Assembly (NCBI RefSeq): GCF_003073175.1
Contig: NZ_QBBX01000015.1
Location: 1-24,000, forward strand
Source of the DNA: Peribacillus acanthi
GTDB lineage: Bacteria; Bacillota; Bacilli; Bacillales; DSM-1321
Direction of reading: 5' to 3'
Length of the DNA: 24,000 nucleotides
Below are positions 911-13,876 of the stretch, one piece after another. The notes below the pieces were generated by a model. It did not search any database. It was not told the DNA's origin and saw only the letters and a list, made by a program, of their open reading frames with translations. The position numbers and the translations under genes are program-made. How positions within the stretch are numbered: position 1 is the stretch's first letter; each line of letters opens with the position of its first letter.

Positions 911-983
911 ATCTTTACCCCCAGTTTCTTTATATCTCCCTTGTAAATTCGCTGAATTTACCTAATTCACCTTCTTAATACAG

Positions 984-3688
984 ATAGGTAAGGGTTTGAA
1001 GTTATCGCTCCCTTTTCCCCCTGCTCACACCGTACGTGAGACTTTCATCTCATACGGCGTTCCAACTAAACCAATTTATTCTTTCTATGTATTAAGCAGA
1101 CGAGTGCTGTTTTTCCAATGTTAGATTATTTCATTTTGACATCTTAATCGAAGTTTATTTACTTTTTCTTTTTGCTTAGAGTTAAGCTTTAAAGAGGCTA
1201 GAAGAGTTTCAATTTTAACCTTATCTTTTAGATGAATCAGTTGATGAATAGCTTTATCAACAATAATCAAATTAGAATAGCTATCATCTTTTGAAAGGTG
1301 AAATGGGGTAATGTGATGACAATGCCATTCATTAATCCCTAACTCTTCTTCTAATATGGCACATTTACCATATTGGGCAATGAACTTACTGATCCTGTTG
1401 TCATTATATTCAATTGATCGACTTGGAATGTAGTTTCTCATGATGTAAGAAAGCATAGTTTTATCAATTGCCTTCAAACTATTGTGTATTCTTGCTCTAC
1501 CTTCGGTAGTATAGTTACAAGTCTGTTGGGAAAAACAAAGTGTGTTTTTCCACCGTTGTGCATGGATAGGCACAAAAACCATTCCTTGTATCTTGAATAG
1601 TTTTGCCTTGTAACCCTTATACCTTTTCTGTAAGGTCTTAGTCATATCATGAAAAATTGCCTCTGTTCTAATATTCTTCAGTTGATTATATAACGTTCTG
1701 CGTAAATGAGAGTTTAACTCATTAAGATTAATTGTGATTTGAGTAGCGACAGAGTAATAATTTTGAATCCCCATGACTACAGTATTGAAATTCCAAACAG
1801 TCTGTATGCTCGGCTTTTTCTTGACTACTTTTATGGCTTCTTTAATCTTTTGGAATGCATGTCCTTTCGCCTTTTTGGACATATCAGACCTAGCTACATA
1901 GCCAAATCTTGTTTTTCCTTTTCTAATTACTTTTATGGAAAAACCAAGAAACTCGGAAGAGTTCTTCTTTAAGTTAATAACCCTAGATTTCTCTTCACTT
2001 GTTTCTAGATGTAATCTGTTTTTCAAAAAGTCTTTCACTGCATAATTTATTCTAATTGCCTGTGACCTTGTTCGGCACATTAATTTAAAATCGTCCGCAT
2101 AGCGGACGATAAAGCACTCTTTCAAAGCTGTTTTCTTTAGGAACTGATACTTACTTCCATTGGTTGAGTATGTATATTTACTTTTAAACGTTTCCCATTG
2201 GTCACTGACCCACCAATCCAATTCATTTAATACAATGTTGGATAATAAAGGAGACAGAATTCCTCCTTGCGGGGTTCCTCTGCATGGGATACCTTCTCCT
2301 TCTATCTCTGCTTTCAAAAGTCTAGATATAATAGAAAGAAGTGGTTTATCCTTAATACCAAGTGACCATATTTGTTTTAGTAATTTACTATGATTCACGT
2401 TGTCAAAGAAACCTTTTATATCTACATCGACACAATGGTAAAGTCCAGCTTGATTGATAAGAAATTCAAGCCTGGTTTTGGCATGATGAGTGCTGCGATT
2501 CGGTCTGAATCCATAACTATGTTTATGGAATTTAGCTTCACAAATTGGCTCTAGGATTTGAAGAATACATTGTTGAAAGATTCTATCCCATATCGTTGGA
2601 ATCCCCAGAGGTCTAGTTTTCCCTTGTCCTTTTGGGATGAAAACACGCCTTACTGTTTGTGGTTCATACCATTTGAACATGACTTGAACCTTCGCTACCA
2701 CATCTTCCACTGATAAGTGAAGAATATCTTTAATAGTTAACTTATCTGTTCCCGCAGTTTTGCTACCCGAGTTTCGTTTAATGTTTCGGTAGGCAAGTCG
2801 TATATTATCTTCAGAACTCATTAAATCCGTTAAGTTATAGAATTGGTAACCACTGACACTTTGAGCGTACAATCTGTCAAAACAATCTTGCATATTGTAA
2901 TACTCGGCATGTCTCAGTTTCTTCCGTTTCAATAAGTCGGCAACTCCTTTCGGAGTTAAACCTCTTTTAGTCTCACGAGAACCTTATTAATCGTTTAAGA
3001 ACTGTCTTACATGGTTGAATAAATCTTCATTAGTCTAGTGGCTATCCCTCCATGTGGATTAGACATTTCATTGGTACTGTGCCACCACTTTCACTGATAC
3101 AAAAGCAAGTTATGCAGTAACTACTATTATTAATGGTTTCCTTGCCACCGTTTCATTAGAAGTAAGTCCTCCACGTTATCAGCTTACAACGTTGAATTAT
3201 ATCTATTATGGAATGAACTTAGGTGCTTCCTTTAAGCCTGTTAGCATTCATACGCCTGTAACGTATCATGGATTTTCATATTAGCTATTTTTACTCATCC
3301 ACATCCAACCTCACAATTTGGTGATATACACATTTCTATGTATCGCAGTTATAGACCCGTACATTCAGAAGTTCGTCAGTTTAACCATTTCTTTTTGGTT
3401 TATTCACATTCTCACCATATTCATTCAACTCAAGCATCATGATTTACACCACCCCCGCGGGTAGGCTTTCGTCAGCCGAACTGGTACGGTAAATTCTCAC
3501 GCCTTTTCGCCGAGCTTATAACACTATCATTCTTACTAAATCCAGTGCTATTCGACTAAGAGAGAACCCTTCAAGGCGTTACCCCATCATTTGATTCTTC
3601 GATATAATCCTTCAGTTCCGAGAGGAACTGTCTAGCTTTTACCAGAGTGATGTGACCACCCTCCATTTAGACTAGAAACATTTCGCAC
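984..3688 (-). mobile_element. complete group II intron (about 2.7 kb) with ORF in domain IV
   Basis: The 5' end reads GTGCGAAATG (reverse complement of 3679-3688), matching the GUGYG consensus. A 34-nt domain V lies at 1027-1060 (ACGCCGTATGAGAT-GAAA-GTCTCACGTACGGTGT, with AC bulge and GAAA tetraloop). A domain VI-like helix with a bulged A ends ...CCTAT near 984 (+/- 5 nt). The intron segment GGTTAAACTG (reverse complement of 3377-3386, about 300 nt from the 5' end) is complementary to the last 10 nt of the 5' exon, CAGTTTAACT, giving an EBS1/IBS1 pairing with one G-U. Confidence 0.88.
1121..2932 (-). CDS. ltrA: group II intron reverse transcriptase / maturase with C-terminal HNH endonuclease domain
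   Basis: 603 aa. RT motifs are present (RPLGIPTIWDRIFQQ, HSYGFRPNRS, DIKGFFDNVNH, GTPQGGILSPLLSNI, YADDF), followed by a maturase/X region and an HNH-like C-terminus (WHCHHITP...NLIIVDKAIHQLIH). Confidence 0.95.
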   Translation of the reverse strand: MKRKKLRHAEYYNMQDCFDRLYAQSVSGYQFYNLTDLMSSEDNIRLAYRNIKRNSGSKTAGTDKLTIKDILHLSVEDVVAKVQVMFKWYEPQTVRRVFIPKGQGKTRPLGIPTIWDRIFQQCILQILEPICEAKFHKHSYGFRPNRSTHHAKTRLEFLINQAGLYHCVDVDIKGFFDNVNHSKLLKQIWSLGIKDKPLLSIISRLLKAEIEGEGIPCRGTPQGGILSPLLSNIVLNELDWWVSDQWETFKSKYTYSTNGSKYQFLKKTALKECFIVRYADDFKLMCRTRSQAIRINYAVKDFLKNRLHLETSEEKSRVINLKKNSSEFLGFSIKVIRKGKTRFGYVARSDMSKKAKGHAFQKIKEAIKVVKKKPSIQTVWNFNTVVMGIQNYYSVATQITINLNELNSHLRRTLYNQLKNIRTEAIFHDMTKTLQKRYKGYKAKLFKIQGMVFVPIHAQRWKNTLCFSQQTCNYTTEGRARIHNSLKAIDKTMLSYIMRNYIPSRSIEYNDNRISKFIAQYGKCAILEEELGINEWHCHHITPFHLSKDDSYSNLIIVDKAIHQLIHLKDKVKIETLLASLKLNSKQKEKVNKLRLRCQNEII

Positions 3689-3694
3689 AGTTAA

Positions 3695-3717
3695 ACTGCC
3701 CCGTTTCTACAATAGAA
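3695..3717 (-). repeat. intergenic motif copy B (ACTGCCCCGTTTCTACAATAGAA on + strand), abutting the intron 5' end
   Basis: It has the same core as copies A, C1 and C2. On the minus strand the motif ends ...ACGGGGCAGTTTAACT, immediately followed by the intron GTGCG. Confidence 0.6.
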
Positions 3718-3825: not shown

Positions 3826-4701
3826 TTATCCCATTACATCTTTAAGACGTTTATTTTGTCTCCTAAGAACTAACCAAAATATTAAAAGAACACTAAATAA
3901 AGTAAATAAAAGTATCGGTGCCTGAAAAATACTCCAAGTGTTTGGTCCGTAATAAGTTAATTGGTGATGTTTCTCAACAGTGTGTTCATACGAATTTTTG
4001 TATTCATATTGAATGACCCACAGTTTATTCGCCATCACAACAGTTCCTAAATCATAGCCACTAGGAGTAATGGGCTCATTCTTTCTAAGTATTCCTTCGT
4101 TCCCAATAACGGTGTCGGCTTTCTTATATTCAATAGGATAGATCGTTGTAGGCTTCTGTTTTACAGAAGCATTTTCCTTTAACCAATCCTCTATATCTGC
4201 TGCTGAAAAAACAGCTAACAAATTAAGTTTTTCATTATACTTTTTAAAAATAGTAAGAAGTTGTTTTTCTTCTTTTTCAGTCACTTCTGTTGAGGATCCA
4301 AGAATATGAAATACATCATACATAATGGCATCTTTTTCTTTGTCTACTACTTCGAACTCAGATACTTCTTCATTATACTCACTAAATTTTATTATCGAAT
4401 GAGTTAGAAAAATGAATCCAAACAGCAAGGAGAAAAGTGTAGACAGGAATAAATATTTCGTCAGTTTTTTTTGTTCATTGAAGAATCTGGATACTTTTTG
4501 GAAGGGTCTCTTTACTTCCACTTTATACACTTCATCTATCTCAACGGAAATATCAACATCATTTTTCATATTTTCTAATACTTCTCTACATTTTTTACAA
4601 GTATTTATGTGTTCCTCAATAAAATGTATACTATCTTGGCTACACAAATGATCAATATAAGATGGCAGTAAATCTCTCACTATATTGCATTTATTGCCCA
4701 T
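3826..4701 (-). CDS. membrane anti-sigma factor (zinc-finger ZAS-type N-terminus)
   Basis: 291 aa. The start overlaps the sigma-factor stop by 11 nt. An HxxxCxxC motif (HINTCKKC) sits near the N-terminus. A TM helix (LFLSTLFSLLFGFIFL) follows at about residue 85, then an extracytoplasmic region of about 170 aa and a second C-terminal hydrophobic helix (ILLFTLFSVLLIFWLVL). Confidence 0.7.
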   Translation of the reverse strand: MGNKCNIVRDLLPSYIDHLCSQDSIHFIEEHINTCKKCREVLENMKNDVDISVEIDEVYKVEVKRPFQKVSRFFNEQKKLTKYLFLSTLFSLLFGFIFLTHSIIKFSEYNEEVSEFEVVDKEKDAIMYDVFHILGSSTEVTEKEEKQLLTIFKKYNEKLNLLAVFSAADIEDWLKENASVKQKPTTIYPIEYKKADTVIGNEGILRKNEPITPSGYDLGTVVMANKLWVIQYEYKNSYEHTVEKHHQLTYYGPNTWSIFQAPILLFTLFSVLLIFWLVLRRQNKRLKDVMG

Positions 4702-5179
4702 TGTTATCCTTACCCCTTTCCCTTAATTTCATCTTAGCCCTATAAAAAGTAACTCTCGCCCAGTTTTCATTTTTCAGTTGTATTTCTCCTATTTCTTTGA
4801 AACTTAGATCACCTAAGATTCTTAAAAGAAAAACCTCTTTATAAGGTTCTTCAAGTAAGTGTATTATTCTATATAGAGCAATTTTATCTTCCGAATGAAT
4901 AAGTTTAGCTTCAGGAGAAGTATGTAATGTGTCATCTTGGAACATATCCCTTTGCTGTTTTTTATTACGTTCCAAGTACTTATAATAGGAGTGCTTTGCT
5001 ATTTGACATAGCCAAACTGACATTTTACATTCACCATTATATCTATCAATGGATTTTACAGCTTGATAGAAGGTTTCTTGCGTTAGTTCTTCTGATAAAT
5101 CTGAGTTGTGGCAAAGACACATTAGATATTTGAATACTTCTTCAGCATAATTGCAATAAATTTCATCTAGTTCTCCCAA
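4691..5179 (-). CDS. ECF-type RNA polymerase sigma-70 family factor
   Basis: 162 aa. It has region 2 (ELTQETFYQAVKSIDRY...WLCQIAKHSYYKYLER) and a region 4 HTH (LSFKEIGEIQLKNENWARVTFYRAKMKLRE). The start is TTG, 7 nt after AAAGGAGG. Confidence 0.9.
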   Translation of the reverse strand: MGELDEIYCNYAEEVFKYLMCLCHNSDLSEELTQETFYQAVKSIDRYNGECKMSVWLCQIAKHSYYKYLERNKKQQRDMFQDDTLHTSPEAKLIHSEDKIALYRIIHLLEEPYKEVFLLRILGDLSFKEIGEIQLKNENWARVTFYRAKMKLRERGKDNNGQ

Positions 5180-5341
5180 GCCTTTTCCTCCTTTCGTCTA
5201 TATATCCGATTTAAGCCAATTTCGTTACAAAGAATCTATTAATTTTTATAAATTTTTTTTATGGCAATAGAAAACCACCAAACAAAATGGCGGCTTAAGT
5301 ATTTTACATTCAACAATATTATTAAAATACCTGCTATTAAA

Positions 5342-5364
5342 CCTGCCCCGTTAGCTTAGTAAGG
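5342..5364 (-). repeat. intergenic motif copy C1 (CCTGCCCCGTTAGCTTAGTAAGG on + strand)
   Basis: 17/23 identical to copy A. On the minus strand it lies just downstream of the tniQ terminator and about 165 nt upstream of the sigma-factor start. Confidence 0.6.
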
Positions 5365-5371
5365 ATTTCAA

Positions 5372-5405
5372 CAAAAAAAAGCGATAAACCCTCATGGATT
5401 ATCGC
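5372..5405 (-). terminator. rho-independent terminator after the tnsAB-tnsC-tniQ operon
   Basis: On the minus strand: GCGATAA-TCCATGAGGGT-TTATCGC followed by TTTTTTTT. Confidence 0.7.
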
Positions 5406-5424
5406 CACCGTTAGTTAAATAACA
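5402..5424 (-). repeat. intergenic motif copy C2 (TCGCCACCGTTAGTTAAATAACA on + strand)
   Basis: A degenerate copy 60 bp from C1 in the same orientation. It shares CCGTTAG-T-A-TAA and overlaps the 3' arm of the terminator stem. Confidence 0.45.
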
Positions 5425-5539
5425 TACTTGAGACCAGCAGGTCACTATCATTTAATTAATGTCGTTACACTTCGGTTTGCAGCAATAGTGCACCTAGACA
5501 CCCAAAGTACCCTACGATTACGAGGATTAAAAACCAACA

Positions 5540-7048
5540 TTATTTATAACCTAATAAAGCTAATTCTCCTTTCCAAACCTTCCTTATTTCTGGATCCAAT
5601 AAATAATTTGGATTGGATAATTTTTTCCTTAATGCTTTATCACTTGGATAAATACCATTTTTATGTAAATCTAAAATAACTTCTTTTAATTCTTTTTTTA
5701 TGTTTTCAGATTTATTAGTATTTAGCTTTTTTACATAACTTCTACGCTGATCGATGAGTTTCTTTGATAGTTCTGGGCAATAATATTTTGCTATAGCTTC
5801 TGATATTCCAAAATCTTTGGAAAACTGATACAAACTTACTGGTGGTTCCATGTCTAAAGCAACTAGTAAGTTCCGTTTTATCGCTTCCTTCTTCTGCTTT
5901 TCTAATTCTTTTTTATTTTTTAAGTTATTTTTATTAATCTCCTCACACAATTCAGGAAAATACTTCTTTGCTGTCATTATGTTAAAGCTTTTTGCTTCAC
6001 AGAGTTTTTTAAGACTCTTATAGTAATTATTCTTTATTTCCTCCCTAAATTCTTTTTCCATTTCATTCAAATTAAATACTCGCTTTCTATTAATCACAGT
6101 CTTTTTGATATCTTTTATTTCAAGATTTAAATCATCTTTTAAACTATTAGCAATCAATTCATAGATTGATAGATTAATTTGATTATAGATTTTAAATATA
6201 CAATCGATAGAAGGCTTACTTTTATTACTAATCCATTGTTGCATTAAAGTAGGATGCAAACCTAAGAAATTACCAAATTCATTGATACTACGAAAATTGT
6301 TAACATCCATGATTTTTTTAAGTATATATCCTATTCGTTGTTTAGTAGGATTTGTGTTTAAATTCTGGCCTTTAGCAATTAATGTCTTGAAGGTGTCTAA
6401 TAAGAATTGTTGATATTTTAAATTGTCAACATTGGTAGTTTGACTTTTATAACCTAACCAATTTAAACAGTACTGACAATGACCAACAATAAAGTTAGCA
6501 TGTAAGAAGTTCAGTTTCTTTCCACATATTAGACAACTATCTTCTAAAAGTACCTGATGCTTGTCACATATGTTGATCCCTTTAATGTACCAGATTAGTG
6601 GTTCATAAATTTCACTACCATTATTTTTTGCTTCATCTAAACAATTAGGACACCATTTCCTAGATTCTCCTATGACATTATTCGAAAATAGACCCGACCA
6701 TGAATTCATCGTTAAGAAAATTAAGTCGTTTCTAGTTGTTAACTCTTCTAAGGCAGAAACATATTCAAGACTAATTGAACTATTTCCATTAATGTACTTA
6801 GTTTTTGGACCAATGCTGCCATTCATAAAGGAATTTTTTCGGCTTTCTGTTTTAATAAAAGGAATAAAAGTTTTGCATACCAATGTAGTTAAATTCATAC
6901 TATGACATTCTGCTAACCTAGAAATATAACTGGTTAAACTTTCTACATAAGGAGTACCCATGCCAATAGGTTCTAAGTTATATAATTTACTCCTTGGAGG
7001 TACATTTATCTCGTCCAAATCAAAGTCAACATAATTAACTGGAATCAT
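5540..7048 (-). CDS. tniQ: TniQ/TnsD-like transposition target-selector protein (copy 1)
   Basis: 502 aa. The N-terminal TniQ-type region has Cys/His zinc motifs (WCPNCLDE...CDKH...CLICGKK...HCQYC). A long helical C-terminal half resembles TnsD. It is the last gene of the tns operon. The N-terminal ~200 aa are clearly homologous to ORF 11774-13039. Confidence 0.85.
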   Translation of the reverse strand: MIPVNYVDFDLDEINVPPRSKLYNLEPIGMGTPYVESLTSYISRLAECHSMNLTTLVCKTFIPFIKTESRKNSFMNGSIGPKTKYINGNSSISLEYVSALEELTTRNDLIFLTMNSWSGLFSNNVIGESRKWCPNCLDEAKNNGSEIYEPLIWYIKGINICDKHQVLLEDSCLICGKKLNFLHANFIVGHCQYCLNWLGYKSQTTNVDNLKYQQFLLDTFKTLIAKGQNLNTNPTKQRIGYILKKIMDVNNFRSINEFGNFLGLHPTLMQQWISNKSKPSIDCIFKIYNQINLSIYELIANSLKDDLNLEIKDIKKTVINRKRVFNLNEMEKEFREEIKNNYYKSLKKLCEAKSFNIMTAKKYFPELCEEINKNNLKNKKELEKQKKEAIKRNLLVALDMEPPVSLYQFSKDFGISEAIAKYYCPELSKKLIDQRRSYVKKLNTNKSENIKKELKEVILDLHKNGIYPSDKALRKKLSNPNYLLDPEIRKVWKGELALLGYK

Positions 7049-7093: not shown

Positions 7094-8212
7094 TTAAAAA
7101 TCAGTCCCTGTCTTATCCCTTTTTGGTTTCCTCTCTCCAGGCTTCCTATTAGTGTTCTTTTTCGGTTTTTCCTCTTCATCTTCTTGATCCAACTTTAACC
7201 AAGCATCGAGCTTCCGTTCCTTCTCATCTCTTTTTTCAGTTAGATTATTTTCTCCTGTAGTAATTTCTAATGCCATTGTGTATGCTTGATCAATTGTTGG
7301 TTCAAATTTTATAAAATCACTGATTGTTAAAGTTTTAGTTCCCTCATCAGATTTCATTTTATAATGGTAGGTATCGTACAACCAATCCCTAAGAGTACCG
7401 ACACATCCTATCGTGTGTTTATAAAAATATTTCCATTCATCAGTAAGATTAGGTTCTTGGTGCAAAGGAAATGCCTTTTGAAAAACCCAAAGAACATTTT
7501 TGAAAGCATCCATATCCTCTTTTTTTTGCGAATTATACCTTGGAAAATGAATATCATTTGTCCTTCTTCCTAATTGGCCATTTATATTTCTAAAACTTTG
7601 TAACTCATATGTTCCAAACAAAATTATTGGGATCCCAAATTTTGAAGCTAATGATTTTATTGCGTCCATATGATTTCTTAATCCTTTTGAAGTGCCTACC
7701 TTAGTCATATGTTGAGCTTCATCTATTAAAATAATTTTTACTTTTCGGCATCTAATTGCATTTTCCAGGGCCTTACGTAACTTCCTCTTTGTTTTTTCGT
7801 TTGGATTATTCGGTACTTCTACACCAATCTCATTTAAGGGCAATCTCTTTTGATCAATTAAAATGTCCCCAAGTTCATCTAATGACTCAGAATAAAAATT
7901 AATCCAGTCAAACTTGCCATCTTCATTGGCGAATGCTTCTACGGCTAAAATTGGAATCAAACCTAAGTCCTTTTTCATTTCCTCGTCGTACCTTCTTAGA
8001 TATTCATTCCTTACTTTTTTAAATAAAGTAGATTTACCTACACCACTTGGACCATAGACCAATAAGACTTTTTTATCTGCAACTTCAATTTTATCCATTA
8101 AATCATTATAAGAATTAACTAGTGTTGGATGAGCAACACTTTTCTTTTTAAAGTAATTGATTCTGTCATCAACTGATTGGAACAATATTTCTTTTGGAAA
8201 ATTTTTATCCAT
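7094..8212 (-). CDS. tnsC: TnsC/TniB-like AAA+ ATPase transposition regulator
   Basis: 372 aa with Walker A GPSGVGKST and Walker B ILIDEAQH. The start ATG overlaps the upstream stop (TAATG). It sits between the transposase and tniQ. Confidence 0.85.
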   Translation of the reverse strand: MDKNFPKEILFQSVDDRINYFKKKSVAHPTLVNSYNDLMDKIEVADKKVLLVYGPSGVGKSTLFKKVRNEYLRRYDEEMKKDLGLIPILAVEAFANEDGKFDWINFYSESLDELGDILIDQKRLPLNEIGVEVPNNPNEKTKRKLRKALENAIRCRKVKIILIDEAQHMTKVGTSKGLRNHMDAIKSLASKFGIPIILFGTYELQSFRNINGQLGRRTNDIHFPRYNSQKKEDMDAFKNVLWVFQKAFPLHQEPNLTDEWKYFYKHTIGCVGTLRDWLYDTYHYKMKSDEGTKTLTISDFIKFEPTIDQAYTMALEITTGENNLTEKRDEKERKLDAWLKLDQEDEEEKPKKNTNRKPGERKPKRDKTGTDF

Positions 8213-11187
8213 TAGAAAAACTCCCCATACATTTCGAATTGTGAATTATTTTCGGTTTTTTTATGTTCGGTTTTAGTCGGTGAAGTAACTTTATTAGTTT
8301 TTGATGTAGGTTTTACTTCTTCATAATCAATATGATTATAATTAGAATTTTTGCTTTTACCTCCATCAATTACCCTCAATGACCTCTTTAGAGCTTCATC
8401 TTTCAACCTTTGAGTTTCCAATAGTTCATGCGATTCTGCTTTGGCCAAAAATTTTGCTAATTCAGAGGCTGAAACTCCATTAATTTTTTCTTTCGTGGTT
8501 TCTTTCTTTCTCCTCTTTATTTCTGCGGTAGCAAGTTGTATTTCCTTCGCAGATTTCCCTTCGAACTCCAACTCATATTGTGAATGAAGTGTTACCCAGT
8601 AATTTCCAACATAAGCATATGCCTTACTATAATCAAAGGGGTCATACCTTACAGGGATTTGTTTTCCCTCAACCGATGGATTGTTCAACTCATATGAATT
8701 ATAATAGCAGTTATTAATTTTTACTCCCTGGCCTGGTTGAACTTTAGCTGTCTCTTTGGTTGTTGTTGGGAGAGTAAGCATCTCAAAGTTTGCATCATAC
8801 CTAATATATGTTTGCTTTCTTTCACCAGTTTTTCTTACATTTTGTTGATAAGCATCTCGAGGACTTTGATCAAGACTAGTGTGAGGCTGTTGATCATAAA
8901 TCTCATAAAACCAATTGTATAAATATTCATATAATACTTCTAAAGTCCAGATAGCTAAATTACGAGGGTCAAATTCTTTTGTCATTTGACGAACTAATTT
9001 GGATAATTGAGTGTTGCCTGCTAAATTGTTAATAAACACGGTATTTGTTGTGCCAAACAGTCTCTCACAAACAGCTCCAAACTTTGGTTTAGCACCTGGT
9101 CGTATTTTTTTATGACAATCGTTGCTTGCTAGCAAAGTATCAAAATATGTACTTTGGAAATCCTTTCCTCCATCTACTACAAGAGTTTTTGGAAGTCGGG
9201 AGTATTTTCTTACACATTCCCTAATCGTATTCATGCAAGACCTATATGATGGGGCATCATAGGTTAAATAAAAAGCTAATACTCTTCGTGAAAAGGCATC
9301 TATTAGTAAAGTTAACCACGGTTTCCCCAATTTTTTCTGAGTCTTAGAGCAGATAAGTTGAATGTCAAGTTCGGTATGGTCTATATGTGCAATTTCAAAA
9401 GGTCTGGTACCATGTCTAGGTGTCGTAAGTGATAATTCCAAAAAAAATGGCTCTTTATCATATGCAGCTTTTGGTCCCCGTCGTTTTAAATCTTGCTCAT
9501 AGCTGGAACGCTTCTCAATTGCCTTAAAGAATGTTTTGTTGCTAGGAGGATCAAACCCGTTTTCAATACACTTATCTCTAAATGAATTGTAAACTGAAGA
9601 TTTATTTCGTTGTTTTTTATCCTCATATACTTCAGTTACATATTTTTCCATTAATTTAATCACTTTGCTGTTTAAGCGCTCTGTTTTATTCCCTTTTTTA
9701 TGATTTTTTGAAATAAACGCATAAAAGCCTCTTCCGTATTCTTTTTCGGCTTTTTTGAATTTTTGGTTCCAATGTCTTAAAGTCCTTGGTGAAACACCTA
9801 CAGACTCGCCATTCATATGAAGTTTGTACTTATTGTACTTCTCATTAGCTTCGGCTAAATCCTCTGGACTTGCTGTCATAATAATATCCATTAAGTCTGA
9901 CTCTTCATATCCCGTTGACTTTTCATTATCTAAAGATTTAATACTACCCATCTTGATTAACTCTTCGAATGCTTTTAACGGTAATGGAATAATCTTTTCA
10001 GCTTCATCTAAAAGAGTGATTTCTGTCTCTCCCATATTTATCACTGTCCATAGATTTCCATTCCAAAGAATCTTTTTACCGACTTCCACATTCACCACAT
10101 TATCGAGATTGCCATTTCCTTTGTTGCTTTTTGAATCTTCAGCATTCAATATTGCCTCGGCAGTTTCCTTATTAATATACAAAGGAAACTTGTTGAAATT
10201 TATAATGAGAAAACGCTCAAGATCGACATATATTTCACCCAGTACAATTAATTTGTAAATATCATCAGCAGTAAACGCAGGATTACTAACGGATAACAAA
10301 TCATCCAAAGTAATATTTGGTGCAGATTGTATATAACTTAGAATAATGTTTCGACTAGTTAAAGAAACCTTAGGATTTTCTTCTAAAAGATAATCTTCTA
10401 AAAAACGAATATTATTTTGTAAATTCCAGTTAATTTCTTTAGAGCATCGAATCCTAAAAGAAAGTCCCTTTTTCTTTGCAAACTCCTCTACTGGTGGACA
10501 TCTCCATTGTCCATTTTCATCCAGACAATATCTCTCTGGTGATTCTTCAATTAACTTGGATAGCTCTTTCTCCGTTTTCCACTCTTCCCAACCGATAAAG
10601 TTCTCTGAAATGACAAAAAAATCAGCTGTATATCTATGACCTCTATTTTTACCGTCTTTAATATAATTAATGGTAAACCCTTCAGGTTGGTCGTAATACT
10701 CATAAACGTTTTTATCAAACTCCATTGAATAGATTCCACTCAGTTCCAGTGTATGGCTTTCGAATTGAATGGTTAATCCCATCTTTTTGCTAGAATAGAA
10801 CCCTCTTACATTACCCTTCCCACTTCGAACTCTACGTGATGGTTCTGAATTTCTGATATTGTTATTGATATAAATTTTAGTTTCATCAATGATTCCCTTA
10901 TCTTTGCAAAACAGATCAAAATCATTAATCACATATGATTCCCCTTTCTTTAAAAAGTCTAGGAAGCTTAATCTACTTATCATCCATGTATGCATATATA
11001 TATAATTAGTATTTAAAGGATCGTATTTCCCCATAATCCTTTCAGCATTCGCACTGGGGCTAAGATTCTCATTTGAGTGGTAGTAATTATTGTTTACTAT
11101 TACTACTTTACCAAGAATTATTTCAGTCTCCACCTGAGGTAAAGTTAACAAAATGAATTTATCATTACACAAAAATCTCTTTGGCAA
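8212..11187 (-). CDS. tnsB: TnsA-TnsB fusion transposase (TnsA-type endonuclease domain + DDE Mu/Tn7-type transposase)
   Basis: A single uninterrupted ORF. The TnsA-like nuclease core is FESHTLE...YTADFFV...WEEWK, followed by a TnsA C-terminal-like segment (INWNLQNNIRFLEDYL). HTH regions follow, then the DDE core HIDHTELD...VVDGGKDF...CERLFGT and a Mu-type C-terminal barrel (VRYDPFDYSKAYAY). The first ~85 codons of the open frame are homologous to a TnsB C-terminus, i.e. remnant sequence. The true start is therefore more likely the GTG at 10932 (AAAGGGG SD 8 nt upstream) or the ATG at 10983/10995. Confidence 0.85.
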   Translation of the reverse strand: MPKRFLCNDKFILLTLPQVETEIILGKVVIVNNNYYHSNENLSPSANAERIMGKYDPLNTNYIYMHTWMISRLSFLDFLKKGESYVINDFDLFCKDKGIIDETKIYINNNIRNSEPSRRVRSGKGNVRGFYSSKKMGLTIQFESHTLELSGIYSMEFDKNVYEYYDQPEGFTINYIKDGKNRGHRYTADFFVISENFIGWEEWKTEKELSKLIEESPERYCLDENGQWRCPPVEEFAKKKGLSFRIRCSKEINWNLQNNIRFLEDYLLEENPKVSLTSRNIILSYIQSAPNITLDDLLSVSNPAFTADDIYKLIVLGEIYVDLERFLIINFNKFPLYINKETAEAILNAEDSKSNKGNGNLDNVVNVEVGKKILWNGNLWTVINMGETEITLLDEAEKIIPLPLKAFEELIKMGSIKSLDNEKSTGYEESDLMDIIMTASPEDLAEANEKYNKYKLHMNGESVGVSPRTLRHWNQKFKKAEKEYGRGFYAFISKNHKKGNKTERLNSKVIKLMEKYVTEVYEDKKQRNKSSVYNSFRDKCIENGFDPPSNKTFFKAIEKRSSYEQDLKRRGPKAAYDKEPFFLELSLTTPRHGTRPFEIAHIDHTELDIQLICSKTQKKLGKPWLTLLIDAFSRRVLAFYLTYDAPSYRSCMNTIRECVRKYSRLPKTLVVDGGKDFQSTYFDTLLASNDCHKKIRPGAKPKFGAVCERLFGTTNTVFINNLAGNTQLSKLVRQMTKEFDPRNLAIWTLEVLYEYLYNWFYEIYDQQPHTSLDQSPRDAYQQNVRKTGERKQTYIRYDANFEMLTLPTTTKETAKVQPGQGVKINNCYYNSYELNNPSVEGKQIPVRYDPFDYSKAYAYVGNYWVTLHSQYELEFEGKSAKEIQLATAEIKRRKKETTKEKINGVSASELAKFLAKAESHELLETQRLKDEALKRSLRVIDGGKSKNSNYNHIDYEEVKPTSKTNKVTSPTKTEHKKTENNSQFEMYGEFF

Positions 11188-11777
11188 TCTCCTTGAATTA
11201 AAGATTCCTCTAGGACTCTACCCCAAAAATAGAATTTCTTGTTGATTGTAAACGTCATACAATATAGTTGAAACTGTTTTTTCTAGAATGTTTAAATAGC
11301 ATGTTGGTGCACAACGTTCTTTCCTTAAATACTTGTCCTGATTCAAGTTATTGAAATGGAATTTTACTAAATTAGTTAACAATCTCTCGTAAATTGAAAA
11401 TTCATTTTTTGGAATAGTTTACTTTTAATATCTAAAGCAACTATTAATTTGTCTAAATTTTCACTCTGAAACCTTTTAGCATCACATTTCAGTAAAGTTT
11501 TAGGGATCATTGAATTTTTTCTTACAGACTCTCTTAGAGTCATCATGATTGATACATAGGATGGGGGCTCAATTGACAAGTAATATGCAAGAACCCTTCT
11601 AGAGTAAACATCAATTAAGAGAGTCAACCACGGTCTCCCAAGATAATTCTTGGTAACTGGGCAGATTACTTCTATATCAAGGCAAATGTGGTCTATCACG
11701 GCTTTTTCCATTGGTTTTTGACTAAACATTGCTCCATAAAGAAATGAAACTGAGGCTTTTCGATTTTTGAAAGTCAT
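10935..11777 (-). pseudogene. decayed tnsB (DDE transposase) remnant from a second, divergent Tn7-like element
   Basis: The ORF 11376-11777 product aligns to the catalytic core of the intact transposase (VIDHICLD...RPWLTLLIDVYSRRVLAYYL...KCDAKRF versus HIDHTELD...KPWLTLLIDAFSRRVLAFYL...VVDGGKDF). Homology continues in another frame with internal deletions and an in-frame TAG (YDVYNQQEILFLG*SPRGIF versus YEIYDQQPHTSLDQSPRDAY). It then runs into the open frame of the tnsAB ORF (FILLTLP...NNNYYHS...KYDP versus FEMLTLP...NNCYYNS...RYDP). Confidence 0.75.
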
Positions 11778-13039
11778 ATTGATAACTCCTTTTTTAATTT
11801 ATTCCACTTTTCTTGTAATGTTTTTTCCTTAAGAAATCCGGAACCTAATATACCTTCTACTTGTCTTCTACTGGGATATATCCCTTTTTGAAGCAATATA
11901 CGAAATGCTTCCTCAAGTCTTGTTATTTTTAAAAGTGCATTTTCTTCCCTTTTTGTTTGTTGATATGAAATATAAATTTCCTTAATTTTTTCACACTCTG
12001 TTTTATACATTCTTGAAAGCAACTTTCTGTCACATCCAAGTTTCCTTGCAAGAGTACTCAGAGATATTGGTTCTTTATCAGCAATGACTTTAATTAAAGT
12101 ATTTCTTATCACATCATGGTTGTGTTCTTCCTTTGCTTTTGCGGAACTATTGGATATTCCAATATCCTTAACGCTCTGCTCTTTTTGAAGGAACTCGGTT
12201 ATTGTAATACCAAAGCCTTTGCATAGTTGAAGCAGATAGTCAATACTTGGGATGCTTTCTCCAGACAACCATAATACAAACGTTGTTTTAGGTATTTTTA
12301 GTTGCTTAGCAGCTCTAATAGGAGAACAATCAAACATTTCTTTTACATAAAAATTGATCGATTCACGTAAAGAGATACTAGCTACATCTAAATGGCTTTG
12401 AGCCAATAGTTCACCTATCAGTAATACATTTGATAAAAGTTCATCTACATTACATAATGATTCTTTATAAGTTGAAAAAGAACCTAACCATTGTCCACAT
12501 CGCGAACAATAACCAGGGAATGTGTTCCTATTTATTATTGGAACTGATTTATTGCAATTTCCACAAATATCCAAAATCGGTCTTTTATGTTTCAAACATA
12601 TAAAAACGGTTTGAAAGCTCCATATCAAAGGATCATAAATAACCTCACCATTTTCCCTTGACTCCTCATAACAAATTGGACACCATGATTTGGTTTTCTT
12701 TAATAACCCTCTACTCGTAAGGATATTTGACCATTTTTGTAGTGTTGTTAAACATAAATCAGATCTTCCTGTCAATTTATTTGTTAGGTCACTAAACTCA
12801 CAAGCTAATTTACCTACCCCATTAATACCAATTGCCGAATCAAAAAAGCCATTTCCACCATGTTTTGAAACTTTTACTAAATATTCTTTTTTTAACAATG
12901 GTGAGTAAATTCTCGAAATTAGACTACCTGTCGCGACACAATGCGCTTCAGCTAACCTTGAAATATAACTGGTTAACGACTCAACAAATGGAGTTCCAAT
13001 CCCTATCGGATCAAGGTTATACAAAATACTTCTTTCCAT
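11774..13039 (-). CDS. tniQ: TniQ/TnsD-like target-selector protein (copy 2, orphan, apparently intact)
   Basis: 421 aa. It has the same N-terminal signature as copy 1 (LYNLDPIGIGTPFVESLTSYISRLAE; WCPICYEE...CLKH...CGNCNK...YCSRC) and a similar C-terminal end (KGIYPSRRQ). An SD-like GTGGGGGT lies 8 nt upstream of the ATG. The stop overlaps the start of the tnsB remnant by 4 nt. Confidence 0.85.
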   Translation of the reverse strand: MERSILYNLDPIGIGTPFVESLTSYISRLAEAHCVATGSLISRIYSPLLKKEYLVKVSKHGGNGFFDSAIGINGVGKLACEFSDLTNKLTGRSDLCLTTLQKWSNILTSRGLLKKTKSWCPICYEESRENGEVIYDPLIWSFQTVFICLKHKRPILDICGNCNKSVPIINRNTFPGYCSRCGQWLGSFSTYKESLCNVDELLSNVLLIGELLAQSHLDVASISLRESINFYVKEMFDCSPIRAAKQLKIPKTTFVLWLSGESIPSIDYLLQLCKGFGITITEFLQKEQSVKDIGISNSSAKAKEEHNHDVIRNTLIKVIADKEPISLSTLARKLGCDRKLLSRMYKTECEKIKEIYISYQQTKREENALLKITRLEEAFRILLQKGIYPSRRQVEGILGSGFLKEKTLQEKWNKLKKELSI

Positions 13040-13262
13040 TATTTTCTACCCCCACTTTCGGGGGTATTATTTGTAAAAAAAAGTATTCTATACATTAAAT
13101 AAAAATATAGGGTATTAAGTGAAGATTAATCCTTCTGTTTCAAGTTGATAATCCCTAAACTCGTGGAAAACATTCTTCCCAGTACCAGCAAAACAAAAAT
13201 TAGAAATATTTTTTGCAATGTCGGTTTCAATTTAGAACTCTAATAAAATCGTTATATCTAAA

Positions 13263-13286: not shown

Positions 13287-13346
13287 ACAAAAAAGCACCA
13301 CTAATAAAACGATGCAGGTACGTAACCCATCGTATATTAGCGGTGC
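13286..13346 (-). terminator. long-hairpin rho-independent terminator just inside the transposon right end
   Basis: On the minus strand: GCACCGCTAATA...(inner CGATG/CATCG stem)...TATTAGTGGTGC followed by TTTTTTGTTGTTT. It is oriented to stop read-through coming from ssrA. Confidence 0.55.
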
Positions 13347-13399
13347 TTCCGCATATTTGAGTTATTAAGTTGTTTAAGTAAATTATTAATAAAGCTAGT

Positions 13400-13483
13400 C
13401 TTACATATTTTGAAGCATATTCTTGCCATAAGTTTTTTGAAGCATAACGTTGCCAAAACGGCAAGTTTATGGTTCAAGTCACA
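13400..13483 (-). repeat. candidate Tn7-like right-end: terminal TGTGAC plus three copies of an 18-19 bp motif
   Basis: Read inward on the minus strand, the sequence is TGTGAC-TTGAACCATAAACTTGCC-GTTTT-GGCAACGTTATGCTTCAA-(9)-GGCAAGAATATGCTTCAA. On the plus strand the motif TTGAAGCATAnnnTTGCCA lies at 13410-13428 and 13437-13455, with an inverted copy at 13460-13477. The terminus starts with TGTG, as Tn7 ends do. Confidence 0.45.
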
Positions 13484-13514
13484 AAAAATAAACAATTAAC
13501 CACCAAATTATGTA

Positions 13515-13876
13515 TGGTGGAGACGGTGGGAGTCGAACCCACGTCCAGAAACATCGCCACTTAAGCTTCTACGAGTGTAGTCGACATATTAGCATTTCGC
13601 TAACTCTTATGCCTATCGACAGGCGTCGGAGTAGCTAGTCTGGTTGTTCTCTTCCTTCATCCTCAGACGGTGGAATCCGGCGTAGCCCACTTAGAGTGAG
13701 TCCCTTACCCTACCACATGGGCAATGGAGGGAGGAACCGCAATCAACTGTTATTAAGCAGCGAAAGCGAAGTTGTTGTTTTGTTTGCCAGTTATTGGCTT
13801 TGACGTTTTAACGAGGCCGATCCCCTCGACTCGCAACCTAAGCTCGAACTATCCCTGTCGAATCCGTAACGTCCCC
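13515..13876 (-). ncRNA. ssrA: tmRNA (transfer-messenger RNA)
   Basis: The 5' end is GGGGACGTTACGGATTCGACAGGGATAG and the 3' end is GGACGTGGGTTCGACTCCCACCGTCTCCACCA. The internal tag ORF is GGC AAA CAA AAC AAC AAC TTC GCT TTC GCT GCT TAA TAA, encoding (A)GKQNNNFAFAA. It is collinear with the Bacillus subtilis ssrA I recall, and lies next to smpB. Confidence 0.96.

Follow-up and report, generated by a model that had tools for sequence, protein, structure and literature searches.

The 24,000 nucleotides of Peribacillus acanthi DNA analysed here (contig NZ_QBBX01000015.1, positions 1 to 24,000, hereafter the window) probably contain a single Tn7-like transposon of the fused-TnsAB clade, which lies 31 nt downstream of ssrA, the gene for transfer-messenger RNA (tmRNA), and is equipped with two target selectors of the TniQ family. 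TniQ2 would be the selector that reads ssrA and TniQ1 the selector of a second target, with the genes arranged as one operon in the order tniQ2, tnsB-prime (a pseudogene), tnsAB, tnsC and tniQ1 (Table 1). The attachment (att) site is presumed to be the tRNA-like 3' end of ssrA. An earlier note on this DNA had described a right end, a terminator, tniQ2, a piece of tnsB and then tnsAB-tnsC-tniQ1, and all of these are present on the minus strand.

The arrangement of the operon can be judged against its relatives, which were gathered by a profile scan with the TniQ2 family, taking one genome per species, followed by tblastn of the window proteins over 82 loci (numbered here with the prefix L). An upstream tniQ, tnsAB, tnsC and a downstream tniQ occur in this order in 28 distinct loci including the window, which span the Bacillaceae, Alicyclobacillus, the Clostridia, a metagenome-assembled genome (MAG) of the Nitrospirota and metagenome contigs. 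A TnsD-like tniQ is found directly 5' of tnsAB in Priestia, Cytobacillus, Ornithinibacillus, Lentibacillus, Virgibacillus, Mesobacillus, Bacillus pseudomycoides and Aquibacillus, and likewise in Oceanobacillus, Metabacillus, Alicyclobacillus, Desulfosporosinus, Desulfitobacterium, Ruminiclostridium and the Nitrospirota MAG. The close relatives L001, L002-4 and L005 have this layout, and the contigs carrying TniQ2 homologues at 82%, 78% and 57% identity have a tniQ, a short tnsB-like open reading frame (ORF) or pieces of one, tnsAB, tnsC and a second tniQ. Frequently the upstream tniQ touches or overlaps the start of tnsAB; in L087, from the Bacillus cereus group, the end of tniQ is at 11293 and the tnsAB start at 11290. 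No transposon end was seen between the cargo and the upstream tniQ in L010, L012, L023 or L031; in L010 an arsenic-resistance operon and its terminator reach the upstream tniQ with no such end between them. It is apparent that this order is a conserved layout of the family. The earlier note had regarded tniQ2 as an orphan and the gene order as one that could not come from a single canonical element, but tniQ2 is a conserved first gene of the operon and the order is the family norm, for which no deletions are needed. In several relatives cargo-like genes are located upstream of the upstream tniQ, between the att-proximal end and the tns operon (L031 2641-10001, L087 1-10001, L010 5551-9857, L023 5554-9893), they include restriction/helicase-like genes, a biosynthetic cluster and the ars operon, and such a placement is unusual for Tn7-like elements.

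The two selectors are also tied to their positions. When 110 TniQ ORFs were clustered at an identity of at least 38% and a coverage of at least 80%, all members of the TniQ2 family (13/13) were upstream of tnsAB and all members of the TniQ1 family (9/9) were downstream of tnsC, with pairings of cluster 1 with cluster 2, cluster 1 with cluster 4 and cluster 5 with cluster 2 all occurring. As the pairings are mixed and the positions fixed, the two selectors are separate, exchangeable modules that flank the tnsAB-tnsC core, and selectors and core genes are exchanged between related elements.

TniQ2 has the features expected of a working selector. The 421-amino-acid (aa) open frame with a likely Shine-Dalgarno sequence (SD) that had been reported from the letters alone was borne out, with the ORF intact, PF06527 matched at an E value of 7e-15, the helix-turn-helix (HTH) families HTH_26 and HTH_3 also matched, and a likely SD of GGGGG found about 10 nt 5' of the ATG. 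The protein is 100% identical to an NCBI entry for Peribacillus acanthi. Residues 2-419 align to residues 21-460 of the TnsD chain of PmcCAST (PDB 8V32_J, E 2e-69), a chain in a solved TnsABCD transpososome that targets a tRNA gene. The zinc ligands C120, C123, C148, H151, C159, C162, C178 and C181 are invariant in 21 homologues, as are several residues in the C-terminal part. The gene is under purifying selection, with pairwise ratios of non-synonymous to synonymous substitution (dN/dS) of 0.13-0.28, the value for the comparison with L001 being 0.25 (dS 0.38, unsaturated), and with full-length proteins in 8/8 close homologues. The proposal that tniQ2 is retained as a selector of a dual-pathway element is supported, and the protein is best read as such a working target selector.

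TniQ1 differs from TniQ2 in its C-terminal half, as the earlier note had seen. Over the first ~300 residues the two proteins share 34% identity, and beyond them they do not align. They are old paralogues and not recent duplicates, and TniQ1 matches the 8V32_J TnsD over residues 6-300 only. Its C-terminal ~200 aa are specific to its family, in which full-length homologues of ~500 aa exist.

Which of the two selectors reads ssrA is indicated by what amounts to a natural swap. Among the elements with a TniQ2 that is at least 56% identical, six of eight abut ssrA, with the terminus 27-31 nt past the CCA end, and in four of these six (L001, L002, L008, L014) the downstream TniQ belongs to another family and is 29-34% identical to TniQ1. 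By contrast, the Cytobacillus solani element L088 has a near-identical core (TnsAB 84%, TnsC 86%, TniQ1 64%) with an upstream TniQ that is only 39% identical to TniQ2, and neither ssrA nor a matching end was found in the 3.6 kb upstream of it. The comparison of the four ssrA elements with L088 therefore points to TniQ2 and not to TniQ1, so that TniQ2 is most likely the ssrA selector and TniQ1 the alternative one, the opposite of what the earlier note had implicitly assumed. The spacing in the window agrees with the homing distances of TnsD in McCAST (29 +/- 1 bp) and CyCAST (30-33 nt). If the window element behaves as the solved PmcCAST TnsD system does, TniQ2 would bind the tRNA-like 3' end of the ssrA gene and recruit TnsC and then TnsAB, with insertion some 30 bp downstream. 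TniQ1 would serve a second target pathway, and the loss of tnsB-prime would be tolerated.

The end of the transposon next to ssrA finishes in TGT at 13483 and has three 20-nt TnsB-type sites of the GGCAANNNTATGCTTCAAAA type at 13408-13479, with the outermost inverted relative to the two inner ones; three matches compare with 0.1 expected by chance, and 0/100 shuffles reached three. An att-proximal end with TnsB sites in both orientations has been reported for the fused-TnsAB clade. This end is also kept beside ssrA in L001, L002, L008, L014, L009, L018 and L031, and an alignment of the window with L001, L002 and L008 gives a distance of 27-31 nt from CCA to terminus. Searches with the end motif and for inverted repeats in general found no inverted partner in the other 13.4 kb of the island, and therefore the far end is placed outside the window; the same searches found no partner end in the fetched relative loci.

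Several observations weigh against the assignment of this element and its selectors. With the far end outside the window, the present element may or may not be mobile. The ssrA-proximal end resembles the ends of elements with a TnsB only 63-66% identical, and L088, with a TnsAB at 84%, shows no such end within 3.6 kb, so the end may not be cognate to the resident TnsAB. L005 and L006 (TniQ2 56-57%) have no ssrA within 8.5-10 kb, and the upstream TniQs of L018 and L031, which are at ssrA, share no more than 33-34% identity with TniQ2, so that family and site do not correspond one-to-one. Conservation of the C-terminal part of upstream TniQs gave no signal with respect to ssrA beyond the close clade. 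In addition, the Alicyclobacillus and cyanobacterial relatives have the opposite geometry to the RNA gene, a geometry in line with that of McCAST, whose left end is reported to abut the tRNA. In these relatives the tns operon is read towards the tmRNA or tRNA gene, and 120-900 bp separate the last tniQ from the 3' end of that gene.

A rival reading is that the roles are the other way round, with TniQ1 as the ssrA selector and TniQ2 serving an alternative pathway, for example to plasmids or other mobile DNA. TniQ1 has the TniQ core too and its homologues carry HTH domains, the last gene after tnsC is the tRNA-adjacent TnsD in cyanobacterial relatives, and the downstream TniQ of L052 and L053 faces a tmRNA or tRNA gene. 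However, elements at ssrA share TniQ2-type proteins but have two unrelated families of downstream TniQ, five loci that combine a TniQ1-type protein with other upstream TniQs (L088, L017, L019, L055, L059) have no ssrA nearby, and it is TniQ2 alone that aligns end to end with the solved tRNA-targeting TnsD. Such a reversal is unlikely, and TniQ2 is preferred as the selector for ssrA.

The stretch between tniQ2 and tnsAB, tnsB-prime, has an ATG start overlapping the stop of tniQ2 (as ATGA). Over the first 133 codons it shares 53% identity with residues 595-695 of the listed 991-aa tnsAB ORF, which belong to the TnsB core. In a three-frame translation it continues past the frameshift near 11420, compared with L001 it has a 4-codon deletion and a 6-codon insertion, and its C-terminal motifs are eroded. 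The frameshift, deletion and in-frame TAG reported earlier were all recovered by this translation and the comparison with L001. A programmed frameshift was considered and rejected, as there is no slippery site and the TAG and the degraded C-terminal motifs are also present.

That this stretch decayed from a full-length tnsB, as the earlier note supposed, does not agree with the relatives, in which it has orthologues that are short and intact. An ORF of 267-281 aa is at the matching position in L001, L002, L006, L008, L014, L083 and L088, the contigs with P0122 and P0124 hold such short ORFs too, and in four of these lineages there is an overlap between the short ORF and the stop of tniQ. The intact orthologues align to residues 509-783 of PmcCAST TnsAB, the catalytic core and beta-barrel, and have neither TnsA, the TnsB DNA-binding domains nor the C-terminal tail. 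Most of the orthologues examined have I, E, C, T or G in place of the first catalytic Asp, which is kept in P0122, P0124 and the window copy; the second Asp is replaced by S, R, T, I or C, and the catalytic Glu is usually retained. As a whole, tnsB-prime does not have the make-up of a TnsB transposase, with an intact frame, DDE residues, N-terminal end-binding domains and a C-terminal TnsC-binding tail. The window copy reads as a recent pseudogene of a conserved short gene.

An exhaustive profile search for proteins of this kind returned about six short representatives among 2,815 matches, the rest being TnsAB of ~900 aa, a word-indexed search with TnsB-prime as query found 3 proteins only, and a search of NCBIfam gave no useful names. 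Neighbour joining places the short proteins in a single clade separate from the working TnsB cores, whereas the extra copy of L017 groups with its own TnsB and is therefore an independent duplication. Among intact copies dN/dS is 0.28-0.62, mostly at saturated dS, with the close pair L008-L014 at 0.33. A rough estimate for this pair, derived from the pairwise values and not the output of a tool, is ~23 non-synonymous and 19 synonymous changes against ~33 and 9 under neutrality. Between the window and L001 tnsB-prime has a dN/dS of 0.57 and tniQ2 one of 0.25. Most of tnsB-prime has been lost in L005 and L009 as well, and for this reason its loss is regarded as tolerated and the gene as dispensable in this sub-lineage.

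It is possible, though doubtful, that TnsB-prime is a real and so far undescribed accessory component of these transposons, whether a regulator, a dominant-negative partner of TnsAB or a linker between the upstream TnsD and the transposase. This is suggested because the frame is open in at least seven diverged elements, forms its own clade, has a dN/dS of ~0.3 and is frequently coupled by ATGA to the upstream tniQ, and also because core-only TnsB ORFs arise independently in L017/L059, L009 and L086. Were it so, the window copy would have been lost only just now. Truncated regulators derived from transposases, such as the Tn5 inhibitor protein, are a classic dominant-negative or regulatory design in which the core fold is present without the N-terminal DNA-binding domains. 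The tnsB-prime orthologues likewise keep the core fold without these domains, but unlike the Tn5 inhibitor tnsB-prime is a separate, diverged gene with its Asps replaced and no C-terminal tail, and in the window it is a pseudogene.

Other core-only or broken tnsB ORFs are scattered among the relatives. One with DDE intact lies between tnsAB and tnsC in L017 (4610-5620, also in L059), one is upstream of a broken tnsC in L009 (7743-8636), one is directly upstream of a separate tnsA in L086 (2310-3185, P0195), and L055 has broken tnsB pieces upstream of its upstream tniQ (5207-6085). All of these begin shortly before the first catalytic Asp, and those with an intact frame stop after the beta-barrel.

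The nucleotide sequence of the operon is a mosaic. The window and L001 are collinear at 79% identity from the untranslated region (UTR) across tniQ2 and tnsB-prime and on into a first, truncated tnsA copy of L001, whereas the tnsAB proper of L001 is only 72% identical to that of the window. L006, L088, L009 and L005 reach 80-87% identity only from ~10937-10951 on, at the start of tnsAB, being 67-69% identical in tniQ2 and unmatched in tnsB-prime. In L001 (2472-4208) there is a ~690-bp tandem duplication over the 5' region of tnsA, the first copy interrupted by a stop and 79% identical to the window tnsA and the second 72% identical, and this looks like the footprint of a replacement of the core module by recombination. 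In L009 the DNA beyond ssrA has, in this order, an end, a terminator, a UTR that includes the opening codons of a tniQ, a 297-aa ORF of the tnsB core, a broken tnsC, a second terminator and UTR, and the intact operon. This reads as two like elements in tandem that deletions have shortened, and for glmS in B. cereus there is a record of Tn7-like elements in tandem at a single att site.

On the basis of the window alone it had been proposed that tniQ2 and the tnsB piece were left behind by an older, related and mostly deleted element that had homed to ssrA, with tniQ2 persisting as an orphan. Tandem remnants such as L009, the tnsB fragments upstream of tniQ in L055 and the mosaic of nucleotide identity, with its junction at the boundary of tnsB-prime and tnsAB, are all in keeping with this. 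However, at least 27 other loci, with identities down to ~30%, show this order with operon-like spacing and no transposon end between the upstream tniQ and tnsAB, tniQ2 has a dN/dS of about 0.2, and seven or more lineages keep the tnsB-prime orthologue intact. The proposal is largely refuted where the gene order is concerned, and as a whole it is improbable. One part of it does stand, namely that related elements arrive at ssrA and then recombine and suffer deletions, as the tandem of L009 and the mosaic identity show; this explains the shuffling of modules but not the position of tniQ2, and it may have been the origin of tnsB-prime.

The other role suggested for TniQ2, that of a competitor or immunity factor which blocks insertion by occupying the ssrA site or titrating TnsC, is very improbable: co-expression of a second TniQ does lower transposition by the TnsD pathway in McCAST, PmcCAST and CyCAST, so interference between TniQ paralogues is real, but TniQ2 shows no sign of specialisation or of a lost TnsC-facing N-terminal domain, its operon position and full-length TnsD homology suit an ordinary selector, tandem elements still build up at ssrA (L009), and nothing was found in favour of a competitor occupying the att site. 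TniQ2 as a working selector for ssrA, paired with TniQ1 for a second target, remains the preferred account.

The core of the operon is complete. PF08722, PF08721, PF00665 and PF09299 all match one protein of 906 aa that has the DDE residues (in HIDH, VVDGG and CERLF), and fused TnsAB, TnsC and TniQ selectors lie in one operon, as in Tn7-like elements of the fused-TnsAB clade. The true start of tnsAB is probably the GTG at 10932 with an SD of AAAGGGG, in line with the 905-920 aa of TnsAB in relatives. The listed ORF of 991 aa (8212-11187) includes an N-terminal extension of 85 codons, which is false since the tnsB-like stretch runs stop-free into the tnsAB frame. The sequence matches to solved TnsD and TnsAB already settle the folds of these proteins.

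Two RNA structures, the terminator and the hairpin before tniQ2, are found at matching places in L001, L002, L005, L006, L008, L009 and L014, and both arms of the hairpin co-vary between loci (ACCCCA/TGGGGT, ACCCCC/GGGGGT). They may shield the operon from read-through of ssrA and control the translation of tniQ2. In L008 (9345-9690), L014, L009 (6695-7020) and L018 (9410-9680) a complete tmRNA gene ends ~330 bp before the transposon end, and a 17-nt copy of the ssrA 3' end, TCCCACCGTCTCCACCA, is found 27 nt ahead of the TGT terminus. This arrangement resembles a scar left by a later integrase-type element, which would have displaced the original 3' end of ssrA.

The island takes up the first 13.5 kb, with a G+C content of 31-33%, and from ~13.5 kb it is followed up to 24 kb by host DNA of ~40% G+C that carries smpB, the RNase R gene and a lysine riboswitch. 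Along the minus strand ssrA comes first, then the spacer, transposon end, terminator, tniQ2, broken tnsB-like stretch, tnsAB, tnsC, tniQ1 and cargo. The cargo includes a complete group II intron, with Rfam matches to D1-D4 and D5-D6 and a 603-aa reverse transcriptase with an HNH domain, adjoined by a pair of genes for an extracytoplasmic function (ECF) sigma factor and a zf-HC2 anti-sigma factor; a group II intron is also near the element in L005. The motif AACCTGCCCCGTT occurs three times in the island (612-634, 3693-3715, 5340-5362), each copy shortly 3' of a minus-strand gene, namely the ORF at 647-910, the anti-sigma gene and tniQ1.

Table 1. Positions of the ssrA-adjacent element and related features, in window coordinates except for the reverse-geometry loci in the last row
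Feature	Position	Strand	Basis or remark
ssrA (tmRNA gene)	13515..13876	-	ARAGORN; Rfam RF00023, 214.6 bits
31-nt spacer, CCA end of ssrA to transposon terminus	13484..13514	-	sequence reading
att-proximal transposon end, terminal sequence TGTGACTTGAACCATAAACTTGCC	13405..13483	-	end motif matches and conservation
Intrinsic terminator hairpin between end and tniQ2	~13290..13350	-	strong; conserved in 8/8 close loci
Hairpin ACCCCC-GAAA-GUGGGGGU just 5' of tniQ2 start	13047..13066	-	likely SD in 3' arm
tniQ2, full-length TnsD-type selector, 421 aa	11774..13039	-	PF06527, HTH, PDB 8V32_J match, dN/dS
tnsB-prime pseudogene	10933..11777	-	frameshift ~11420; TAG 11218-11220; no stop of its own
tnsAB, fused transposase (probable start at 10932)	8212..10932	-	Pfam TnsA_N, rve, Mu-transpos_C; 84% identical to L088 TnsAB over full length
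tnsC, AAA+ adaptor, intact	7094..8212	-	PF05621, PF13401
tniQ1, second selector, 502 aa, intact	5540..7048	-	PF06527
Cargo (group II intron; ECF sigma/anti-sigma pair)	978-3615 and 3826-5179		
Reverse-geometry loci	L052 15892-18701; L053 17214-19030; cyanobacterial, e.g. L020 10001-11568		

Compared with known systems the element is closest in its parts to PmcCAST of type I-B2 (PDB 8V32/9BW1) and to McCAST and CyCAST of type I-D. It shares with them full-length TnsD homology with an N-terminal zinc-finger TniQ domain and a C-terminal HTH, fused TnsAB with TnsC as partners, insertion ~30 bp past a tRNA-like 3' end, an att-proximal end with TnsB sites in both orientations and a second TniQ paralogue in the element. 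It differs from them in that the target is the tmRNA gene and not a tRNA gene, the TnsD-type gene is first in the operon, 5' of tnsAB and not 3' of tnsC, the operon leads away from the att gene and not towards it, and there is no CRISPR-Cas module. With Tn7, which uses TnsABC and TnsD at glmS and TnsABC with TnsE, it shares a dedicated att-site selector and a second pathway, insertion at a fixed distance downstream of a conserved gene that is left undamaged, and tns genes that read inward from the att-proximal end. Unlike Tn7, TnsA and TnsB are fused, TnsE is absent, the att site is another one and a selector gene is ahead of the transposase genes.

Tn7-like transposons with dual tniQ-tnsD genes are already known, with 1,048 tandem loci described (Faure et al. 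2023, PMC10293859; see also Hsieh et al. 2022, PMC9881144), and these also have two selectors, read as serving a chromosomal homing pathway and an alternative one. In the tandem pairs the selectors are adjacent (Faure et al. 2023), whereas those of the window flank tnsAB-tnsC and are exchanged independently between elements; tniQ2 and tniQ1 are split by tnsB-prime, tnsAB and tnsC, and the selectors are likewise split in the 27 relatives. The new points are the split layout, the ssrA target and the conserved dead TnsB-like gene. A split layout with TnsD first, ssrA as a Tn7-like att site and a conserved dead TnsB-like gene were not found in the literature searched, a search that was incomplete and is weak evidence.

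What had been taken for the decaying relic of a tandem is the architecture that is standard in a sizeable and little-described group of Tn7-like elements in the Bacillota, and ssrA is indicated as a protein-guided attachment site for such elements. The independent exchange of selectors provides a natural swap experiment on which TniQ reads which target, and the dead TnsB-like gene is a testable candidate for a new regulatory component in a family of transposons that is being engineered for DNA insertion.

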